A stretch of DNA of 64,000 nucleotides, taken from Octopus vulgaris. Lineage: Eukaryota. The DNA is taken from NCBI GenBank assembly GCA_951406725.2, contig OX597814.1:120156001-120220000 (forward strand), read 5' to 3'. This document shows positions 1-58,745 of this stretch, in pieces. How positions within the stretch are numbered: the stretch's first letter is position 1; every line of letters begins with the position of its first letter. The notes under the pieces are model-generated. The model did no database searches, was not told where the DNA came from, and saw only the letters and a list, made by a program, of their open reading frames with translations. A program made the position numbers and the translations under genes.

Positions 1-76
1 CTCCGGGCATGACAGACCCTGTAACTCACATATGCAAAACAGAAGGAATAGATAACGAATACGAAGTCTGGCGGTT

Positions 77-191
77 ATCTGTGAACATCATGTTTCTGGA
101 TTATAAACATATTGAATATATATTCCATATATTTTTGATATATATTTAATATATATTGCATATATATTTCACATCCTTCTTCAGCACAGAT
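77..191 (-). ncRNA. Type I hammerhead ribozyme fold, unit 1 (intact core, 7-bp stem I)
   Basis: Minus strand reads AUCUGUG-CUGAAGA-A-GGAU(~70-nt AU-rich loop)AUCC-A-GAAA-CAUGAUG-UU-CACAGAU. Stem I is AUCUGUG/CACAGAU, stem II GGAU/AUCC, stem III ACA-UGA-UGU. Predicted GUU cleavage falls between + strand positions 84 and 83. Activity is untested. Confidence 0.8.
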
Positions 192-692
192 TTCCATTGA
201 AAAAGATTTATCATAGATTTATCAAATGCTACGTACCTCAAACCTTCTGACCATGCGATATCAAAATATTTGAAGAAAGTGAGCAAAGGCTAAACCTACA
301 TAGACGTTTGAATTCATAAATCTTCCCTCCAAAATTTTGCCATGCGCATTACAGTTAGGTTGTCAAAGGGAGTGAAAAATCCAAATAGTAATATAATGAT
401 AAGAGTAAATAATTTCTATAAAGGCCTTTAAAAAAACCCCAATTATTTACTGGTAGAATTCGGTATGTAAATATAGCCGATTACCGGCAGGAACTTCTGT
501 AAAGTTCAGTATATATATTGTATATAAGAAAAAGGGACAGGCAAAACAGGTTGCTTGACCGCATACCGAAAAAATAGAAATAGCAGTCAAGAATGCTTAT
601 TTCTATCAAAGTTGGACTCCGGGCATGACAGACCCTGTAACTCACATATGCAAAACAGAAGGAATAGATAACGAATACGAAGTCTGGCGGTT

Positions 693-807
693 ATCTGTGA
701 ACATCATGTTTCTGGATTATAAACATATTGAATATATATTCCATATATTTTTGATATATATTTAATATATATTGCATATATATTTCACATCCTTCTTTAG
801 CACAGCT
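693..807 (-). ncRNA. Hammerhead fold, unit 2, core mutant CUAAAGA (G5A)
   Basis: + strand TCTTTAG instead of TCTTCAG (T at 798); the rest of the fold is retained. Confidence 0.7.
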
Positions 808-1309
808 TTCCATTGAAAAAGATTTATCATAGATTTATCAAATGCTACGTACCTCAAACCTTCTGACCATGCGACATCAAAATATTTGAAGAAAGTGAGC
901 AAAGGCTAAACCTACATAGACGTTTGAATTCATAAATCTTCCCTCCAAAATTTTGCCATGCGCATTACAGTTAGGTTGTCAAAGGGAGTGAAAAATCCAA
1001 ATAATAATATAATGATAAGAGTAAATAATTTCTATAAAGGCCTTTAAAAAAAACCCCAATTATTTACTGGTAGAATTCGGTATGTAAATATTGCCGATTA
1101 CCGGCAGGAACTTCTGTAAAGTTCAGTATATATATTGTATATAAGAAAAAGGGACAGGCAAAACAGGTTGCTTGACCGCATACCGAAAAAATAGAAATAG
1201 CAGTCAAGAATGCTTATTTCTATCAAAGTTGGACTCCGGGCATGACAGACCCTGTAACTCACATATGCAAAACAGAAGGAATAGATAACGAATACGAAGT
1301 CTGGCGGTT

Positions 1310-1424
1310 ATCTGTGAACATCATGTTTCTGGATTATAAACATATTGAATATATATTCCATATATTTTTGATATATATTTAATATATATTGCATATATAT
1401 TTCACATCCTTCTTCAGCACAGCT
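1310..1424 (-). ncRNA. Hammerhead fold, unit 3 (intact core, 5-bp stem I)
   Basis: + strand TCTTCAGCACAGCT gives core CUGAAGA and stem I CUGUG/CACAG. Confidence 0.75.
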
Positions 1425-1925
1425 TTCCATTGAAAAAGATTTATCATAGATTTATCAAATGCTACGTACCTCAAACCTTCTGACCATGCGACATCAAAAT
1501 ATTTGAAGAAAGTGAGCAAAGGCTAAACCTACATAGACGTTTGAATTCATAAATCTTCCCTCCAAAATTTTGCCATGCGCATTACAGTTAGGTTGTCAAA
1601 GGGAGTGAAAAATCCAAATAGTAATATAATGATAAGAGTAAATAATTTCTATAAAGGCCTTTAAAAAAACCCCAATTATTTACTGGTAGAATTCGGTATG
1701 TAAATATTGCCGATTACCGGCAGGAACTTCTGTAAAGTTCAGTATATATATTGTATATAAGAAAAAGGGACAGGCAAAACAGGTTGCTTGACCGCATACC
1801 GAAAAAATAGAAATAGCAGTCAAGAATGCTTATTGCTATCAAAGTTGGACTCCGGGCATGACAGACCCTGTAACTCACATATGCAAAACAGAAGGAATAG
1901 ATAACGAATACGAAGTCTGGCGGTT

Positions 1926-2040
1926 ATCTGTGAACATCATGTTTCTGGATTATAAACATATTGAATATATATTCCATATATTTTTGATATATATTTAATA
2001 TATATTGCATATATATTTCACATCCTTCTTCAGCACAGAT
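1926..2040 (-). ncRNA. Hammerhead fold, unit 4 (intact core, 7-bp stem I)
   Basis: Same as unit 1 (TCTTCAGCACAGAT). Confidence 0.8.
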
Positions 2041-2541
2041 TTCCATTGAAAAAGATTTATCATAGATTTATCAAATGCTACGTACCTCAAACCTTCTGAC
2101 CATGCGATATCAAAATATTTGAAGAAAGTGAGCAAAGGCTAAACCTACATAGACGTTTGAATTCATAAATCTTCCCTCCAAAATTTTGCCATGCGCATTA
2201 CAGTTAGGTTGTCAAAGGGAGTGAAAAATCCAAATAGTAATATAATGATAAGAGTAAATAATTTCTATAAAGGCCTTTAAAAAAACCCCAATTATTTACT
2301 GGTAGAATTCGGTATGTAAATATAGCCGATTACCGGCAGGAACTTCTGTAAAGTTCAGTATATATATTGTATATAAGAAAAAGGGACAGGCAAAACAGGT
2401 TGCTTGACCGCATACCGAAAAAATAGAAATAGCAGTCAAGAATGCTTATTTCTATCAAAGTTGGACTCCGGGCATGACAGACCCTGTAACTCACATATGC
2501 AAAACAGAAGGAATAGATAACGAATACGAAGTCTGGCGGTT

Positions 2542-2656
2542 ATCTGTGAACATCATGTTTCTGGATTATAAACATATTGAATATATATTCCATATATTTT
2601 TGATATATATTTAATATATATTGCATATATATTTCACATCCTTCTTTAGCACAGCT
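2542..2656 (-). ncRNA. Hammerhead fold, unit 5, G5A core mutant
   Basis: TCTTTAG (T at 2647). Confidence 0.7.
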
Positions 2657-3157
2657 TTCCATTGAAAAAGATTTATCATAGATTTATCAAATGCTACGTA
2701 CCTCAAACCTTCTGACCATGCGACATCAAAATATTTGAAGAAAGTGAGCAAAGGCTAAACCTACATAGACGTTTGAATTCATAAATCTTCCCTCCAAAAT
2801 TTTGCCATGCGCATTACAGTTAGGTTGTCAAAGGGAGTGAAAAATCCAAATAGTAATATAATGATAAGAGTAAATAATTTCTATAAAGGCCTTTAAAAAA
2901 ACCCCAATTATTTACTGGTAGAATTCGGTATGTAAATATTGCCGATTACCGGCAGGAACTTCTGTAAAGTTCAGTATATATATTGTATATAAGAAAAAGG
3001 GACAGGCAAAACAGGTTGCTTGACCGCATACCGAAAAAATAGAAATAGCAGTCAAGAATGCTTATTGCTATCAAAGTTGGACTCCGGGCATGACAGACCC
3101 TGTAACTCACATATGCAAAACAGAAGGAATAGATAACGAATACGAAGTCTGGCGGTT

Positions 3158-3272
3158 ATCTGTGAACATCATGTTTCTGGATTATAAACATATTGAATAT
3201 ATATTCCATATATTTTTGATATATATTTAATATATATTGCATATATATTTCACATCCTTCTTCAGCACAGAT
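3158..3272 (-). ncRNA. Hammerhead fold, unit 6 (intact core, 7-bp stem I)
   Basis: Same as unit 1. Confidence 0.8.
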
Positions 3273-3773
3273 TTCCATTGAAAAAGATTTATCATAGATT
3301 TATCAAATGCTACGTACCTCAAACCTTCTGACCATGCGATATCAAAATATTTGAAGAAAGTGAGCAAAGGCTAAACCTACATAGACGTTTGAATTCATAA
3401 ATCTTCCCTCCAAAATTTTGCCATGCGCATTACAGTTAGGTTGTCAAAGGGAGTGAAAAATCCAAATAGTAATATAATGATAAGAGTAAATAATTTCTAT
3501 AAAGGCCTTTAAAAAAACCCCAATTATTTACTGGTAGAATTCGGTATGTAAATATAGCCGATTACCGGCAGGAACTTCTGTAAAGTTCAGTATATATATT
3601 GTATATAAGAAAAAGGGACAGGCAAAACAGGTTGCTTGACCGCATACCGAAAAAATAGAAATAGCAGTCAAGAATGCTTATTTCTATCAAAGTTGGACTC
3701 CGGGCATGACAGACCCTGTAACTCACATATGCAAAACAGAAGGAATAGATAACGAATACGAAGTCTGGCGGTT

Positions 3774-3888
3774 ATCTGTGAACATCATGTTTCTGGATTA
3801 TAAACATATTGAATATATATTCCATATATTTTTGATATATATTTAATATATATTGCATATATATTTCACATCCTTCTTTAGCACAGCT
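3774..3888 (-). ncRNA. Hammerhead fold, unit 7, G5A core mutant
   Basis: TCTTTAG (T at 3879). Confidence 0.7.
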
Positions 3889-4389
3889 TTCCATTGAAAA
3901 AGATTTATCATAGATTTATCAAATGCTACGTACCTCAAACCTTCTGACCATGCGACATCAAAATATTTGAAGAAAGTGAGCAAAGGCTAAACCTACATAG
4001 ACGTTTGAATTCATAAATCTTCCCTCCAAAATTTTGCCATGCGCATTACAGTTAGGTTGTCAAAGGGAGTGAAAAATCCAAATAGTAATATAATGATAAG
4101 AGTAAATAATTTCTATAAAGGCCTTTAAAAAAACCCCAATTATTTACTGGTAGAATTCGGTATGTAAATATTGCCGATTACCGGCAGGAACTTCTGTAAA
4201 GTTCAGTATATATATTGTATATAAGAAAAAGGGACAGGCAAAACAGGTTGCTTGACCGCATACCGAAAAAATAGAAATAGCAGTCAAGAATGCTTATTTC
4301 TATCAAAGTTGGACTCCGGGCATGACAGACCCTGTAACTCACATATGCAAAACAGAAGGAATAGATAACGAATACGAAGTCTGGCGGTT

Positions 4390-4504
4390 ATCTGTGAACA
4401 TCATGTTTCTGGATTATAAACATATTGAATATATATTCCATATATTTTTGATATATATTTAATATATATTGCATATATATTTCACATCCTTCTTCAGCAC
4501 AGCT
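4390..4504 (-). ncRNA. Hammerhead fold, unit 8 (intact core)
   Basis: TCTTCAGCACAGCT. Confidence 0.75.
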
Positions 4505-5005
4505 TTCCATTGAAAAAGATTTATCATAGATTTATCAAATGCTACGTACCTCAAACCTTCTGACCATGCGACATCAAAATATTTGAAGAAAGTGAGCAAA
4601 GGCTAAACCTACATAGACGTTTGAATTCATAAATCTTCCCTCCAAAATTTTGCCATGCGCATTACAGTTAGGTTGTCAAAGGGAGTGAAAAATCCAAATA
4701 GTAATATAATGATAAGAGTAAATAATTTCTATAAAGGCCTTTAAAAAAACCCCAATTATTTACTGGTAGAATTCGGTATGTAAATATTGCCGATTACCGG
4801 CAGGAACTTCTGTAAAGTTCAGTATATATATTGTATATAAGAAAAAGGGACAGGCAAAACAGGTTGCTTGACCGCATACCGAAAAAATAGAAATAGCAGT
4901 CAAGAATGCTTATTGCTATCAAAGTTGGACTCCGGGCATGACAGACCCTGTAACTCACATATGCAAAACAGAAGGAATAGATAACGAATACGAAGTCTGG
5001 CGGTT

Positions 5006-5120
5006 ATCTGTGAACATCATGTTTCTGGATTATAAACATATTGAATATATATTCCATATATATTTTATATATATTTAATATATATTGCATATATATTTCA
5101 TATCCTTCTTCAGCACAGCT
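5006..5120 (-). ncRNA. Hammerhead fold, unit 9 (intact core)
   Basis: TCTTCAGCACAGCT; a few substitutions in loop II. Confidence 0.75.
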
Positions 5121-5620
5121 TTCCATTGAAAAAGATTTATCATAGATTTATCAAATGCTACGTACCTCAAACCTTCTGACCATGCGACATCAAAATATTT
5201 GAAGAAAGTGAGCAAAGGCTAAACCTACATAGACGTTTGAATTCATAAATCTTCCCTCCAAAATTTTGCCATGCGCATTACAGTTAGGTTGTCAAAGGGA
5301 GTGAAAAATCCAAATAGTAATATAATGATAAGAGTAAATAATTTCTATAAAGGCTTTAAAAAAACCCCAATTATTTACTGGTAGAATTCGGTATGTAAAT
5401 ATAGCCGATTACCGGCAGGAACTTCTGTAAAGTTCAGTATATATATTGTATATAAGAAAAAGGGACAGGCAAAACAGGTTGCTTGACCGCATACCGAAAA
5501 AATAGAAATAGCAGTCAAGAATGCTTATTTCTATCAAAGTTGGACTCCGGGCATGACAGACCCTGTAACTCACATATGCATAACAGAAGGAATAGATAAT
5601 GAATACGAAGTCTGGCGGTT

Positions 5621-5735
5621 ATCTGTGAACATCATGTTTCTGGATTATAAACATATTGAATATATATTCCATATATTTTTGATATATATTTAATATATTT
5701 TGCATATATATTTCACATCCTTCTTCAGCACAGCT
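5621..5735 (-). ncRNA. Hammerhead fold, unit 10 (intact core)
   Basis: TCTTCAGCACAGCT. Confidence 0.75.
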
Positions 5736-6235
5736 TTCCATTGAAAAAGATTTATCATAGATTTATCAAATGCTACGTACCTCAAACCTTCTGACCATGC
5801 GACATCAAAATATTTGAAGAAAGTGAGCAAAGGCTAAACCTACATAGACGTTTGAATTCATAAATCTTCCCTCCAAAAATTTGCCATGCGCATTACAGTT
5901 AGGTTGTCAAAGGGAGTGAAAAATCCAAATAGTAATATAATGATAAGAGTAAATAATTTCTATAAAGGCTTTAAAAAAACCCCAATTATTTACTGGTAGA
6001 ATTCGGTATGTAAATATAGCCGATTACCGGCAGGAACTTCTGTAAAGTTCAGTATATATATTGTATATAAGAAAAAGGGACAGGCAAAACAGGTTGCTTG
6101 ACCGCATACCGAAAAAATAGAAATAGCAGTCAAGAATGCTTATTTCTATCAAAGTTGGACTCCGGGCATGACAGACCCTGTAACTCACATATGCAAAACA
6201 GAAGGAATAGATAACGAATACGAAGTCTGGCGGTT

Positions 6236-6350
6236 ATCTGTGAACATCATGTTTCTGGATTATAAACATATTGAATATATATTCCATATATTTTTGATAT
6301 ATATTTAATATATATTGCATATATATTTCACATCCTTCTTCAGCACAGCT
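6236..6350 (-). ncRNA. Hammerhead fold, unit 11 (intact core)
   Basis: TCTTCAGCACAGCT. Confidence 0.75.
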
Positions 6351-6851
6351 TTCCATTGAAAAAGATTTATCATAGATTTATCAAATGCTACGTACCTCAA
6401 ACCTTCTGACCATGCGACATCAAAATATTTGAAGAAAGTGAGCAAAGGCTAAACCTACATAGGCGTTTGAATTCATAAATCTTCCCTCCAAAATTTTGCC
6501 ATGCGCATTACAGTTAGGTTGTCAAAGGGAGTGAAAAATCCAAATAGTAATATAATGATAAGAGTAAATAATTTCTATAAAGGCCTTTAAAAAAACCCCA
6601 ATTATTTACTGGTAGAATTCGGTATGTAAATATAGCCGATTACCGGCAGGAACTTCTGTAAAGTTCAGTATATATATTGTATATAAGAAAAAGGGACAGG
6701 CAAAACAGGTTGCTTGACCGCATACCGAAAAAATAGAAATAGCAGTCAAGAATGCTTATTTCTATCAAAGTTGGACTCCGGGCATGACAGACCCTGTAAC
6801 TCACATATGCATAACAGAAGGAATAGATAATGAATACGAAGTCTGGCGGTT

Positions 6852-6966
6852 ATCTGTGAACATCATGTTTCTGGATTATAAACATATTGACTATATATTC
6901 CATATATTTTTGATATATATTTAATATATATTGCATATATATTTCACATCCTTCTTTAGCACAGCT
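6852..6966 (-). ncRNA. Hammerhead fold, unit 12, G5A core mutant
   Basis: TCTTTAG (T at 6957). Confidence 0.7.
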
Positions 6967-7275
6967 TTCCATTGAAAAAGATTTATCATAGATTTATCAA
7001 ATGCTACGTACCTCAAACCTTCTGACCATGCGACATCAAAATATTTGAAGAAAGTGAGCAAAGGCTAAACCTACATAGACGTTTGAATTCATAAATCTTC
7101 CCTCCAAAATTTTGCCATGCGCATTACAGTTAGGTTGTCAAAGGGAGTGAAAAATCCAAATAGTAATATAATGATAAGAGTAAATAATTTCTATAAAGGC
7201 CTTTAAAAAACCCCCAATTATTTACTGGTAGAATTCGGTATGTAAATATAGCCGATTACCGGCAGGAACTTCTGT

Positions 7276-7468
7276 TTGACTGCTATTTCTATTTTTTCGG
7301 TATGCGGTCAAGCAACCTGTTTTGCCTGTCCCTTTTTCTTATATACAATATATATACTGAACTTTACAGAAGTTCCTGCCGGTAATCGGCTATATTTACA
7401 TACCGAATTCTACCAGTAAATAATTGGGGTTTTTTTAAAGGCCTTTATAGAAATTATTTACTCTTATC

Positions 7469-7475
<7 letters not shown>
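7276..7475 (-). repeat. Inverted 200-bp partial copy of the array unit terminating the array
   Basis: Reverse complement of unit segment ATATAATGATAAGAG...ATAGCAGTCAA. Positions 7366-7475 pair with 7166-7275, and the copy merges into (TA)n. Confidence 0.97.
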
Positions 7476-7507
<32 letters not shown>

Positions 7508-7615
7508 ATGTATGTATGTATGTATGTATGTATGTATGTATGTATGTATGTATGTATGTATGTATGCATGTATGTATATATGTATGTATATGTGTATGTA
7601 TGTGTGTGTGTGTGT
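7471..7615. repeat. Compound microsatellite (TA)n-(TATG)n-(TG)n
   Basis: Direct reading. Confidence 0.97.
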
Positions 7616-7921
7616 GGAGGCACAATGGCCCAGGGGTTAGGGCAGTGGTCTCGCGATCGTTGGATCGTGGTTTCGATTCCCAGAGCGGGCGTTGTGAGTG
7701 TTTATTGAGCGAAAACACCTAAAGCTCCACGAGGCTACGACAAGGGGTGGTGGCGATCCCTGCTGTATTCTTTCGCAACAACCTTCTCTCACTCTTTCTT
7801 CTGTTGGCCTGCTTGCTTAGCCAGCGGGATGGCGTCATCTGAAGACTAAAACAATGCAAAGCGCAATGTGACCAGCGATGTGTAACGACATCTGATAGCC
7901 TGGTCGGTCACGGTGATCACG

Positions 7922-7925
<4 letters not shown>
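7616..7925 (+). mobile_element. tRNA-derived SINE (octopus OR-like family)
   Basis: Pol III A box TGGCCCAGGGG and B box GTTTCGATTCC. Head and body are homologous to 38593-38765. Ends in (TCACGGTGA)2 followed by (TA)n. Family name is from recall. Confidence 0.8.
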
Positions 7926-7989
<64 letters not shown>

Positions 7990-8211
7990 TACATAGGGCG
8001 AGAGTGTAAAACTAGGTAAACACTAAGTATCACACCCATGTTATAAATTCATTAAAATTATTAGCACATTAAGGGTCATTAATCATAATAATACGTTTAT
8101 CATGACCTCTAATATACTTTTATCGTGACTATTAATTCTTTTGATAAAAATAAAAGACTACTGTACGTGTTTTCTTTTTTCATAACTGTATCCCAGCTTT
8201 ATATATATATC

Positions 8212-42212: not shown

Positions 42213-43990
42213 GTACATGAATTTATGTTGCAAGATTCCTGATGTTAAGTCATGTGTTGAAACAAAATAGACAAAAAATATCCATCCCAATATATGACAA
42301 CACCTGTTTCAGCACACTGTTTCACATCAGGAATCTCACAGCACAAATTCATATACGTAATTGCCCCAGCATAATGGCAGCTTCAAACCAGAATTTCCAC
42401 GACGTTCTCGCTCCAACTGAACAACATAAACTTCACTCACTCTTTCATCCTGTCCCACCCGATGCCACTATACCACGCCTCACACTATCCTCCTCGATTG
42501 ACTAGTCCCCTCTTTCTCACTCCCACCCTTCAATTACTTTCCCCTCCCCCACACAACTTCCCTTCTCTCCCCTCCCAGCCTTCCACCTCCTCCAGCACAC
42601 TTCCAGCACCTAACTTCCCCTCCTCCCTATTTCAGTCTGTTGGTACCATTATTCCTAGTCTCTCCCTCAAATGGAGCGCTCTCTTCACAGTAGGGGGTCT
42701 GCGATTCATTTCCCTCATTCCGTCCGTTACGAGTTTCATATCCTTTGTGCGCCGTGTCGGGATACATACACTATTTCAAAACATCCCACCTGTATCTAAT
42801 GAGGAAGACTGCTTCTTAGAACTCACGGCTGACCACCCTACTAGACGACAGCTCCTGGCCAGACCCAAGCAGTTGATCTATTTGCAAACATCTGCCCAAG
42901 CGTTGTGGTCCGGCTCATCTTTTGCAGGCGTCCCCGATATTTCAACATCTTCTCAGCCGAAATCTCGGCCCTTCGATATCACATTTGTAGAGATGAGCTA
43001 CATTCGGAATAAAAATGCACTGTCTCCGCATTTTGTTCAAACATTCAATTTTGGTGAGAATTTTTTAATGAAATGCAGTTCCATTGCTTTTTCCAATAGC
43101 GAATCGTCCCGTGCACATTTGTAAAAGGGAAAATCTTTGAATTTTCCGTCGCTGCATATTTCCAGATGCTTATTTGCGTGATTTCTCTTGTCGGATATGT
43201 TTCCTATGGATTCTTTCACGTTGGCAGAGAGAATCATTTGTTTCGCCTATGTAATTTTTTTTTGCATTTTCGGCAAGTAATGCAGTATATGATGTTTTGC
43301 AGTTCATATCTACATTTATATTGAAAAGGGATCCGCTATTGAATTTTATGTGGGAACCACTTAACCATGTATTTGAATTTGTTGATGTTGTTGTATATTC
43401 CACATCTCCTATCTTCCCATTCTCTTACCAAGATTTCTGATTTATTCTCTGATTTGAATTCTGCCCTCGTGATGTGTTTTTTAAGAGTTTTTGGTTGTCG
43501 TCTGCTATTTCGTTTTCGGGCGTTATAGGAGTATAGGTAAGTTCGATTTTATGGCATGAAAGATGTTCATTATTTCAGGACTGTATGTGTTAACGAACGG
43601 AATCGTGTTTTCATTAACTTTTTCCTTAGGTGTCCGTAGTTGGGTGTTGTTCAGTTTCATGGTATTTTTAATTTCCTCATTAATTAAGACTGAGGGGTAT
43701 TTCTGCATGGTAAAGTAGCTTTGAGTTCGTTGAGTAGGATTTTACTTATTTTGGGGTCAGTCACTATAGCACATATATGTCTTGGCATGGTGTATGTGAT
43801 GTTTCTTTTGATGTGAGATAGATGGCAAGAGTAGAAATTTAAATATTAGTGTGTGTGACTTTTTCTCTAAAATATTCTGTTGTGACTGTGGAGTTCTGTA
43901 TTCTCATGTGGATATCCAGGAATGGTATTTCATTGCAACTCGATTCTCTAGTGAATTTGATGGATGGGTGAAGTGTGTTCAGTATATTGT
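42213..43990 (-). mobile_element. Decayed 5'-truncated Penelope-like retroelement (RT thumb, linker, GIY-YIG endonuclease, 3' region with inverted terminus)
   Basis: Frameshifted minus-strand peptides: LNTLHPSIKFTRE..IPFLDI (RT C-terminus), IPFVNTYSP (linker), NYIGETNDSLCQRERIH and ELHFIKKFSPKLN (GIY-YIG). Inverted arms at 42213-42264 and 42305-42356. The left boundary is uncertain. Confidence 0.88.
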
Positions 43991-47328: not shown

Positions 47329-48091
47329 CAGTAGTTTTATTTTTATTTTTATAGCGTGCTTTCACTTCACTACCGAGCGCAGCTCTGTGTGCCTTGGGTA
47401 TGTGCTGTGATTTGTTGTGATGCTCTGATGGTTATTGTATGGAAAGTGTTCTGCGTAGGATGTGTGCAGTGCCTAGTAGTGCAATTTTCTGTATGTTATA
47501 TGTGTTTGTAAGTCCTGGTGTTTTTGTTATGTATTTGTCTGAATATTTTTTTATCATGCCTAATGCACCTACTATGATAGGAATTGTTTCTGTTTTCAGA
47601 TTCCACATTCTAGTTACCTCTATTTCCAGGTCTTTGTATTTTGAGAGTTTCTCCATTTCTTTTAGAGACACGTTGTCATCTGCCGGTATTGATACATCAA
47701 TTAGAAAGCATTTTTTTTCTTCATGGTCTCTGACAACTATATCTGGTCTGTTGGCCTTAATTTCTCTATCTGTGTGTATCGGCATATCCCAGAGTATGGT
47801 TGCTTTCTCGTTTTCTGTGACCTTTTCTGGTGTGTGCCTATACCATCTTTTTTCTGTTGTTATTCCATAATGTTGGCATAGCTTCCAATGTATGTAAGTT
47901 CCAACTCTGTCATGTCTGTGAATATATTCCTTCTTAGCCAGGACTGGGCAGCTAGAGATAATATGATTTATTGTTTCTTGTCCATCTCCACATATTCTGC
48001 AGTTACTTGTAATATTTCTTTTCATTACATGTTTTTGGTAATTTCTGGTGGGGAGGCTTTGGTCTTGTGCTGCAATTAAAAATCCCTCTGT
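47329..48091 (-). mobile_element. 5'-truncated R4/Dong-clade non-LTR retrotransposon (CCHC knuckle + RLE endonuclease, ORF 47432-48025)
   Basis: CRICGDGQETINHIISSC, RHD, RPDIVV..IDV, KLSKY and IIVGALG motifs. Flanked by (TTA)n on both sides, the known Dong target. Confidence 0.93.
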
Positions 48092-48112
48092 TATTATTAT
48101 TATTATTATTAA

Positions 48113-48161
<49 letters not shown>

Positions 48162-48164
<3 letters not shown>

Positions 48165-49110
48165 TAGTTTTATTTTTATAGCGTGCTTTCACTTCACTAG
48201 CGAGCGCAGCTCTGTGTGCCTTGGGTATGTGCTGTGATTTGTTGTGATGCTCTGATGGTTATTGTATGGAAAGTGTTCTGCGTAGGATGTGTGCAGTGCC
48301 TAGTAGTGCAATTTTCTGTATGTTATATGTGTTTGTAAGTCCTGGTGTTTTTGTTATGTATTTGTCTGAATATTTTTTTATCATGCCTAATGCACCTACT
48401 ATGATAGAAATCGCTTCTGTTTTCAGATTCCACATTCTGGTTACCTCTATTTCCAGGTCTTTGTATTTTGAAAGTTTCTCCATTTCTTTTAGAGACACGT
48501 TGTCATTTGTCGATATTGATACATCAATTAGAAAGCATATTTTTTCTTCATGATCTTTGACAACTATATCTGGTCTGTTGGCCTTAATTTCTCTATCTGT
48601 GTGTATCGGCATATCCCAGAGTATGGTTGCTTTCTCGTTTTCTGTGACCTTTTCTGGTGTGTGCCTATACCATCTTTTTTCTGTTGCTATTCCATAATGT
48701 CGGCATAGCTTCCAGTGTATATTCTGCAGTTACTTGTTATATTTCTTTTCATTACATGTTTTTGGTAATTTCTGGTGGGGAGGCTTTGATCTTGTGCTGC
48801 AATTAAAAATCCCTCTGTCTCTGCTTTGAGTCCTGAGCTTCTCAACCATTGCTGGGATTTTTCTTTGTCTATTTCTTTTGCGTTTAGTTTAGTCCAGTAT
48901 TTACCATGAAGGGGCTTTTCTTGCCATCTTTTTATCATGGTTCGTTGCTCTTCTGTTTTTAGTTTGGATTTCATTTGTTTTATAGCTTTTGTTGTTTCTT
49001 CATCTTCTTCTTCTTCTTCATATTTATTAGGTGGTATGATTTCTTGTTTGTATTTGTCAGCTTCCTTAAATACTGAGAACAGTTTTTTGTTTTGCTCGTG
49101 TTTTGCCGCT
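48162..49110 (-). mobile_element. Second 5'-truncated R4/Dong copy with ~100-bp internal deletion
   Basis: Near-identical to 47329-48091 and extends further 5' (WQEKPLHG, KAETEGFLIAAQDQ). Lacks the knuckle/RHD segment near 48720. Confidence 0.92.
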
Positions 49111-58067: not shown

Positions 58068-58745
58068 GTGGAGTATAAATTAAGACATGACAGAGTTGGC
58101 CAATATCTACACTGGCTAATAAGTCGGCATTACAATATCAAAACTGTCGATAAGTGGTATAATCACCACCCTGAGGCTGTAACTGAAGGAGAAAATGTAA
58201 CCATTCTGTGGGACTTTCCAGTACATACAGACCGAACCATCAAGGCCAATAAACCAGATATTGTTGTGAAAAACCAAAACAATAAAGTTTGCTTATTGAT
58301 CGACATGAGCATCCCCTGTGATCATAATATCTCAGCGAAAGAGTTTGACAAGCTCATAAAATATAAAGACCTACTCATTGAAATTGAGAAAATGTGGCAT
58401 CTCAAGACGGTTACAATACCAGTGATCGTAGGAGCACTAGGAATGATCAAGAAGGGAACCGAAAATTATATGAGAATGATCCCTGGCTTACAATCCCTGC
58501 AAGAAGTTCAAAAGATTGTCTTAACTGGTACATCACACGTATTGAGAAGAGCATTGTCGATGTGAGAACTGTTGCTGCTCATGTATTTTAATTTAACTTA
58601 AAAAAAAATTTAAAAAATGAACGAACTATTGAGTTTGGTTTAATGGCCTACCAATGTATACTATGAGTTTCTTTGCCCTAGGAGTCGGGAAGACACTCGG
58701 CAAGAAATGGAAGCAAATTTGAAAGAAGAAAAAAAAAAAAATAAT
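58068..58745 (+). mobile_element. 5'-truncated R4/Dong copy, second subfamily (ORF 58068-58565, RLE)
   Basis: RHD, KPDIVV..ID, KYKDL and VIVGALG motifs. Starts right after (TAA)n and ends in A-run/TAA. Confidence 0.92.

Follow-up and report, generated by a model that had tools for sequence, protein, structure and literature searches.

Non-LTR retrozymes of metazoans (coral, Mytilus, axolotl) are non-coding tandem units of low GC content with one type I hammerhead ribozyme (HHR) each, and strongly paired monomers and co-occurring Penelope-like elements (PLEs) are described for them in PMC7229834 and 10.64898/2026.07.22.740005. The octopus family studied here, designated F1, shares these features. 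The units here, 616–644 bp, exceed the 150–450 bp of PMC7229834 and lie inside the 51–972 bp given in 10.64898/2026.07.22.740005; the sequence-only reading, which called the monomer large for a metazoan retrozyme, is right by the first range and wrong by the second. F1 differs from these retrozymes in having a long hairpin for loop 2, a GUU cleavage site and no detectable similarity to the PLE termini examined. Its inverted arms, tails and (TA)n targets are not described for retrozymes in the accessible parts of the same two sources.

Neptune-type PLEs, represented in this genome by families N1 and N2, are similar to F1 in other respects. According to 10.1101/2021.04.23.441226, PMC11167929 and PMC4209133, they show head-to-head inverted 5′-truncated arms and partial tandems; they also have two alternative 3′ ends, the longer on one side only, (TA)n targets, and a type I HHR in which helix III is palindromic and A9 is followed by an additional base. 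In contrast, F1 contains no ORF, its alternative ends are ~119 nt apart instead of 30–40 nt, and its HHR and 3′ sequence are unrelated to the N1 and N2 termini.

Newt satellite 2 and schistosome Sm-alpha resemble F1 in that their tandem repeats carry a type I HHR whose helix III is weak. In F1, helix III is 3 bp long and the unit is larger. Sm-alpha repeats are transcribed by Pol III. The F1 unit gave no match to Pol III A/B box patterns and has nine runs of at least four T on its sense strand; therefore, Pol III transcription as in Sm-alpha is unlikely for F1. A literature search found no report of a cephalopod retrozyme, with subscription papers and the supplements of PMC7229834 and the 2026 preprint being places where cases could be listed. 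F1 is a new family within the class of non-LTR retrozymes, a class itself already known.

Tandem array and inverted partial unit

The window is a stretch of 64,000 nt from Octopus vulgaris (assembly GCA_951406725.2, contig OX597814.1, positions 120,156,001 to 120,220,000, forward strand). The following features were located in it.

1..7275, minus strand: tandem arm of the insertion, with 12 HHR-bearing units of 615–617 bp in the window
79..189, minus strand: unit 1 hammerhead of type I, with its stem I at 189–185/83–79, recurring every 615–617 bp
184–178, minus strand: core CUGAAGA of the unit 1 HHR
177 and 97, minus strand: extra A residues of the unit 1 HHR, one either side of the stem II base
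176–173/101–98, minus strand: stem II of the unit 1 HHR, extended by a long A/U hairpin
96–93, minus strand: GAAA of the unit 1 HHR
93–85, minus strand: helix III of the unit 1 HHR; U17 is position 84, and the cut is predicted to fall between 84 and 83
391..601, minus strand: conserved 3′ domain of the unit, common to sister families F2 and F3, recurring in each unit
794..800, minus strand: mutated core CUAAAGA (G5A), unit 2
2643..2649, minus strand: mutated core CUAAAGA, unit 5
3875..3881, minus strand: mutated core CUAAAGA, unit 7
6953..6959, minus strand: mutated core CUAAAGA, unit 12
7276..7475, plus strand: inverted 5′-truncated partial unit that meets the array head-to-head and has its end at site A
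7471..7615, no strand: (TA)n/(TATG)n microsatellite, right boundary and putative target

The ~616-bp repeat proposed earlier for 1–7275 was borne out by the minus-strand units of 615–617 bp. Full units differ from one another at 0–9 positions, in keeping with the homogeneous array of at least 12 units claimed before; including a unit upstream of the window (L031:9384–10000), whose left end adjoins (TA)n, the array has 13 HHR copies. The array together with the inverted partial unit is adjoined by (TA)n at both ends. Units 1, 4 and 6 are identical, as are units 3 and 8. The longest stop-free frames of the unit span 69 codons (sense) and 68 codons (antisense), consistent with the absence of a long ORF noted previously.

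Hammerhead ribozyme, sister families and 3′ domain

Stem I CUGUG/CACAG, CUGAAGA, GGAU/AUCC, GAAA, ACA-UGA-UGU and GUU are all found on the minus strand, and the ordered type I elements and cut site of the sequence-only reading agree with the sequence. The three-way junction appeared in the unconstrained minimum-energy fold of 70–200 (minus strand), with pair probabilities of 0.90–1.0 for stem I, 0.89–1.0 for stem II and 0.47–0.72 for stem III. The CUGAAGA core, and with it the type I core, is present in only 8 of the 12 window units. The other four, starting at 617, 2466, 3698 and 6776, have CUAAAGA, so that not every unit encodes a ribozyme as had been stated; the G5A core change would be inactivating. 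In the fold, the supposed ~70-nt loop II prolongs stem II as a long A/U hairpin. An A.A at 10.1/11.1, with a G-C pair one step out, had been overlooked. Neither a paired 10.1–11.1 beside the core nor the canonical loop 1–loop 2 contact is found in F1, in which the hairpin replaces loop 2. With A.A at the stem II base, a GUU site and no normal loop 2, a weak ribozyme is predicted. HHR variants tolerating a mismatch near the stem II base exist, and axolotl HHR_Amex2, with a U.U mismatch at that position, still shows weak cleavage.

The Rfam search, suggested earlier as a check, detected no hammerhead at E ≤ 1 in positions 1–8000, and none in six F2, F3 and PLE loci either. It also failed to pick up the compact HHR motif that PLE N2 carries in locus L216, so the search is insensitive here. 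Its matches to miRNA families were rejected, as they sit in simple repeats or far under gathering scores.

Of 135 complete F1 HHRs in the sampled loci, 118 fitted two anchor motifs in which one stem I position could be either G or T. F2 and F3 retain a covarying HHR and the conserved 3′ domain. Among 23 HHRs from the three families, 95% of cells pair, compared with 15–37% in slid controls, and 9 of 14 pairs, none in helix III, change on both sides; because the rows form three related clades, this covariation counts as few events and not as 23. Covariation of the stems had likewise been named as a check, and sequence, structure and covariation all uphold the retrozyme call. The HHR is very likely under selection in the lineage. 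The F1 HHR probably cleaves in vivo; the Xenopus result, in which 1 of 9 predicted retrozyme dimers cleaved in vitro, counts against the explanation preferred below.

The predicted helix III duplex of F1 is −8.2 kcal/mol and helix III is a perfect palindrome in the sister families; on these grounds the cleavage as a dimer between units suggested earlier is plausible. The 3-bp helix III of F1 could form within a monomer too. The 3′ domain folds as a long helix closing a multibranch, followed by a terminal A/U hairpin; its covariation is nearly absent (1/17 pairs), which also counts against the preferred explanation. When the monomer was folded as a circle, z was −7.5 for the sense strand compared with −3.2 for the antisense strand (40 shuffles each), and by this model it is highly self-paired, a trait of retrozymes.

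Genome-wide dispersal and insertion footprint

Exact motif searches of the genome gave 450 copies of the HHR 3′ half and 482, 374 and 748 copies of other motifs, with none for the reversed controls. F1 is thus a dispersed multi-locus family without LTR structure, and the earlier label of satellite misses the main point: the unit is mobile, and its insertions are of Penelope type. In units 3–4 and 8–11, and in many other arrays, complete type I HHRs stand two or more in a row, as in non-LTR retrozymes.

Head-to-head inversions accounted for 46 of 62 sampled clusters, none being simply tail-to-tail, and (TA)n flanked both sides in 51 of the 62, compared with a background of 6.5%. Among 110 arms, 50 had their 3′ end at site A (391, the main 3′ end of insertions) and 25 at site B (~510), ~119 nt away. 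Exactly one arm ended at site A in 43 of the 46 inverted loci, and two arms did so in none. Simple twin priming of the L1 type was rejected, as by eye the end of the second arm did not follow the truncation point of the first.

Copy counts were flat across the cut site (482 to 450), and only 3 of 92 5′ ends fell at the cut (~3 expected, no pile-up), in loci chosen by full-unit or HHR match and so biased towards arms crossing the cut. A linear cut monomer as template was rejected on these counts; since the arms read through the cut site, the template would be a circle or an uncut multimer.

An inverted 5′-truncated arm, a tail at one end and a microsatellite target mark F1 insertions as PLE-mobilised, and their geometry agrees with the PLE description in 10.1101/2021.04.23.441226 and with two-site internal initiation in PMC11167929. 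N1 and N2 are young and leave the same footprint; young PLEs of the genome combine intact RT and GIY-YIG ORFs with (TA)n targets, and their tails measure ~30 and ~38 nt. The Neptune assignment was made by the CxxxCxxC linker, recognised against 10.1101/2021.04.23.441226, and not by a tree. PLE-type mobilisation of F1 is very likely. In the search for a partner by sequence, BLAST and profiles showed no homology between the F1 unit and the termini of N1, N2 or other GIY-YIG loci; profiles of the 3′ domain and HHR, run on 46 GIY-YIG/PLE loci, matched no terminus of N1 or N2.

Proposed life cycle and alternatives

F1 is best explained as a non-autonomous non-LTR retrozyme mobilised in trans by PLE proteins (probability roughly 0.6). 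Arrays would be transcribed from the minus strand, and HHR cleavage of the multimer, which is probably slow or takes place in dimers, would release 616-nt monomers; a host ligase may close these into highly paired circles, as in known retrozymes. A PLE RT/GIY-YIG protein would then bind the RNA, with the conserved 3′ domain as the probable site, and nick (TA)n DNA; cDNA would begin internally at one of two sites ~119 nt apart, one start site per target strand, as the observed footprint suggests. Copying past the cut site would yield the head-to-head 5′-truncated tandem arms observed, for which a circle is the simplest template, and duplication at the DNA level may later have enlarged the array, a pattern seen in the spread of G5A to four units. 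The odds lean slightly towards a circle as template. Of the variants confined to a single sampled locus, 19 are fixed throughout its copies (14 span both arms), compared with one arm-specific case, which favours the preferred explanation. Another 21 private variants are partially shared, indicating that arrays grow at the DNA level too and weakening the rolling-circle reading; locus L086 mixes two subfamilies.

More tentatively, and with the balance somewhat against it, F1–F3 may be a superfamily of ribozyme circles without sequence link to PLE termini that hijacks Neptune PLE proteins via its own conserved 3′ RNA domain. The insertions would then directly preserve a rolling-circle process in which reverse transcription of a single circular RNA starts from each strand of nicked (TA)n, with a ~119-nt tail. 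If true, this would provide direct evidence for the retrozyme life cycle proposed in the literature, in a system that could be reconstituted.

A PLE-mobilised F1 copied from an uncut multimeric transcript, with a weak or protein-assisted HHR serving another step and circles as by-products, is the strongest alternative, although an unlikely one. In the anole PLE, HHR cleavage is dispensable: HHR mutants show normal insertion, and RT begins internally on uncut RNA, which is the main substrate (PMC11167929). The insertion ends of F1 bear no trace of the cut site, and DNA-level duplication can account for long homogeneous arrays. Daughter arrays should, however, carry parental mosaics, whereas among variants common to a locus and at least two others, 74 cases were fixed within the locus, 2 were partial and 11 single; the strong self-pairing predicted for the circular monomer also argues against an uncut template.

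It is improbable that the F1 HHR is an inactive remnant from an F3-like ancestor in which it was active, with F1 now spreading in SINE-like manner as a PLE parasite via the 3′ domain alone. The cleavage triplet (GUU in F1, GUA in F2, GUC in F3), enlarged stem II with A.A at its base and missing Rfam match would fit, but no variant common to at least two loci was found in the HHR core (68 monomers), the altered stem I is fully re-paired, and the youngest N1 PLE also has GUU.

Even less probable is that the unit is a solo pseudo-LTR of an unsampled autonomous PLE family. Resemblance to known TEs was reported by Li et al. for 24 of 57 retrozyme families of Xenopus, 21 of the 22 TEs concerned being PLEs, and 150 of 6136 GIY-YIG candidates were scored here. 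Against this, tblastn detected PLE coding sequence in 5 of 90 F1/F2 loci, the two inspected (L044 and L135/L098) being separate insertions past the (TA)n run; F1 units adjoin each other without an ORF, and the profiles matched no terminus as described above. An ordinary satellite grown at the DNA level with a chance HHR-like motif has a negligible probability, since the local duplications it would explain (u1=u4=u6, u3=u8) stand against 0 descriptor matches in 20,000 dinucleotide shuffles of the unit, a covarying HHR and dispersed copies with polar ends.

How retrozymes are copied into new sites has been addressed in the literature by proposing PLE helpers, from co-occurrence or terminal similarity, and circles, by analogy. 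Read as a retrozyme mobilised in trans, F1 is a good test case for the spread of such elements: one genome offers hundreds of young copies, a clear PLE footprint, two mapped start sites and a conserved candidate binding domain. The G5A units serve as natural controls and there are intact PLE ORFs of very young age, which makes the template and helper questions directly testable. F1 would also add a probable cephalopod source of abundant circular RNA.

Contigs from four of 24 sequencing runs, none of the runs being recorded as RNA, were examined, and three of the four contained short pieces only. The fourth, X5, gave a 651-nt contig that covers 1687–2332, carries 5 inserted bases and so amounts to a 621-nt period and 30 nt more, with the HHR core unchanged; with an assembly word presumably of 31, it would be closed-loop shaped. 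As a circle or a perfect tandem would both explain it, the contig was not counted as evidence. When the majority F1 sequence was folded as a circle, the HHR was absent from the minimum-energy structure, a point against the preferred explanation, whereas the unit 4 variant of the window formed it.

The array and its hammerhead motif

The window opens within a tandem array of 615-617-bp units that extends to position 7275, with mutual differences of 0-9 bases; the sequence-only reading was borne out on this repeat and on the lack of a long ORF, the longest stop-free frame in the unit being 69 codons. The whole insertion starts one unit upstream of the window, straight after a (TA)n run, and contains 13 hammerheads. 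Further elements in the window are:

7276-7475, inverted partial unit, joined 5' end to 5' end with the array and continuing into (TA)n
about 7612-7925, repeat that we take to be SINE-like with a tRNA-like head, directly after the flanking microsatellite
43043-43976, minus strand, decayed Penelope-like element (PLE) fragment, spanning the C-terminal portion of the RT through to GIY-YIG and preceded by a (TA)n run
47432-49109, minus strand, open frame, partly duplicated in appearance
58068-58565, plus strand, open frame

Both open frames look like the restriction-like endonuclease region towards the C terminus of non-LTR retrotransposon proteins. No tRNA was detected in the window by ARAGORN.

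A hammerhead had been claimed for every unit. The type I layout was indeed present on the minus strand (the unit sense) in each, but 4 of 12 cores read CUAAAGA. This G5A change, which would inactivate the hammerhead core, was seen four times among 135 complete hammerheads of family F1 (the retrozyme family of the unit) in the sampled loci, the same number as in the window array. The predicted cut lies between 84 and 83 (window unit 1, minus strand). The hammerhead descriptor matched, with 0 of 20,000 shuffles doing so, and the three-way junction appeared in the local fold predicted without constraints, with one extra A on either side of the stem II base. The segment described as a ~70-nt loop II folds as a long hairpin, and the Rfam search gave no hammerhead match for F1 (window 1-8000, E ≤ 1).

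The A.A junction and GUU site suggest that cleavage would be slow. According to the portions of the sources compared, GUU is among the listed cleavable sites (PMC3138052), PLE hammerheads typically have an unpaired base following A9 (PMC4209133), an axolotl hammerhead, with U.U at the stem II base where F1 has A.A, cleaves weakly and better as a dimer (PMC7229834), and only 1 of 9 Xenopus candidates cleaved (10.64898/2026.07.22.740005).

By sequence criteria, F1 is a non-LTR retrozyme, and its unit, earlier called large for a metazoan retrozyme, falls inside the published size range. No report of cephalopod retrozymes was listed in the literature searched, which covered main texts; a term search of an Octopus vulgaris repeat paper (PMC13282606) returned zero occurrences of "hammerhead" and "ribozyme", and the portions of PMC7761336 and PMC10886601 compared contained nothing contrary.

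Dispersal and insertion footprint

A genome-wide search showed that the F1 unit is dispersed, with 1352 candidates; among the 40 that were scored, full-length copies of 95-100% identity were present on many contigs. Subfamilies of ~616 bp and ~644 bp were distinguished. Exact motif counts from 5' to 3' along the unit were 374, 450, 482, and 748 (reversed controls, 0), indicating a gradual enrichment towards the 3' end that shows no jump at the cut site.

For the footprint, 60 loci forming 62 clusters were used, including the window locus; the other 59 comprised 19 from the best full-unit matches and 40 taken among the first 100 of 450 exact hammerhead matches, a selection that favours long copies. 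Head-to-head clusters, with arms (strand-oriented runs of unit sequence) joined 5' to 5', numbered 46, together with 14 single-stranded and 2 complex clusters; a simple tail-to-tail arrangement occurred in 0 of 62. Runs of (TA)n of at least 8 bases bordered both sides of 51/62 clusters, versus 6.5% of random 70-base windows.

Site A, the main 3' end (window 391 + n units), terminated 50 of 110 arms, and site B, 119 nt upstream, terminated 25. A looser B* class tolerates a mismatch and may overstate the number of site B ends. The 5' ends were scattered, lying near the cut in 3/92 cases versus about 3 expected by arithmetic. Exactly one arm ended at site A in 43 of the 46 inverted loci, and two arms did so in none, versus about 10 expected by arithmetic with independent arms. 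In the portions compared, Craig et al. describe the same layout in PLEs, one end carrying a tail (10.1101/2021.04.23.441226), and Frangieh et al. demonstrate that the PLE tail comes from two internal RT start sites, with cutting and extension on both target strands (PMC11167929). Relative to the literature compared, an insertion footprint that links a retrozyme with the PLE machinery although their termini lack homology is new, as are the two mapped 3' ends and the shared 3' domain.

At the left end of the window array (L031:9375-9390), a short site B piece is followed by a jump upstream in the unit. Similar ends were observed in L057, L063, L075, and L090. The jumps across these ends, of 10-85 nt, suggest template jumps soon after priming.

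Template of the insertions

Variants private to one locus (relative to the 60 sampled loci) were fixed in every copy of that locus in 19 cases, 14 of them spanning both arms, and 1 case was arm-specific; widely shared variants were fixed in 74 cases, partial in 2, and single in 11. Fixation across copies and arms argues that one haplotype seeds each insertion, as rolling-circle templates would predict. An uncut multimer is a possible template, and hammerhead cleavage is dispensable in an anole PLE, according to part of PMC11167929. DNA-level duplication can also homogenise arrays; 21 private variants, including those in the window array, were only partially shared, which points to such duplication at a later stage. 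A cut linear monomer is ruled out, since 87/110 arms cross the cut site, 33 of them more than once, in this sample biased to long copies.

One insertion, in L086, carries bases diagnostic for one F1 subfamily alongside those of another, which points to a switch from one RNA template to a second.

Sister families and Penelope-like elements

Two sister families were identified: F2 (~580 bp; 1802 and 979 candidates), found through a weak match, and F3 (~560-590 bp; 1711 candidates), traced from loose ends in the sequencing-run search. Each carries a distinct hammerhead whose stems differ in sequence yet remain paired, with a palindromic helix III and GUA (F2) or GUC (F3) as the cleavage triplet. 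Covariation was supported by an alignment of 23 hammerheads (1 F1, 15 F3, and 7 F2, omitting F2 copies with a longer helix III because they misaligned): 95% of cells pair, versus 15-37% in slid controls, and 9 of 14 pairs changed on both sides, although the three clades represent few independent events. Matches to F2 and F3 likewise concentrate at two 3' ends. A 3' domain of ~200 nt, common to all three families, is conserved mainly in sequence (1/17 pairs covaries) and is a candidate protein-binding signal.

Hammerhead motifs unrelated to F1-F3 were noted in L094, L095, L098, L099, L109, L124, L130, L134, and L158; as these were chance finds in loci fetched for other purposes, the number of families in the genome is probably much larger.

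Young PLE families encoding RT and GIY-YIG domains number at least two in this genome: the Neptune-type N1 and N2, to which the PLE fragment in the window shows about 29-30% identity over the longest matches. An open frame of 781 codons occurs in many N1 copies; all 111 scored N2 matches were ~100% identical to the query at the protein level, many in 775-codon frames, and N2 is an extremely young family, probably active now. In both families, copies terminate in (TA)n, occur as inverted pairs, carry tails (N1, ~38 nt; N2, ~30 nt), and have terminal hammerhead motifs. Sequence shared between the F1 unit and N1 or N2 was undetectable by BLAST or profile search.

N2 showed a tandem period of 4271 bp (L215, L216, and L132) and a hammerhead motif with U.U at the stem II base. 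In the N1 terminal motif, U3-A8 replaces C3-G8, and an additional ORF of ~350-480 codons lies upstream of the RT-EN ORF (L121:1945-2985 and 3293-5590). N1 copies end in a (TA)n run, and retrozyme copies were located inside or close to that run in L044:2152-2260, L117, and L098, consistent with a shared target.
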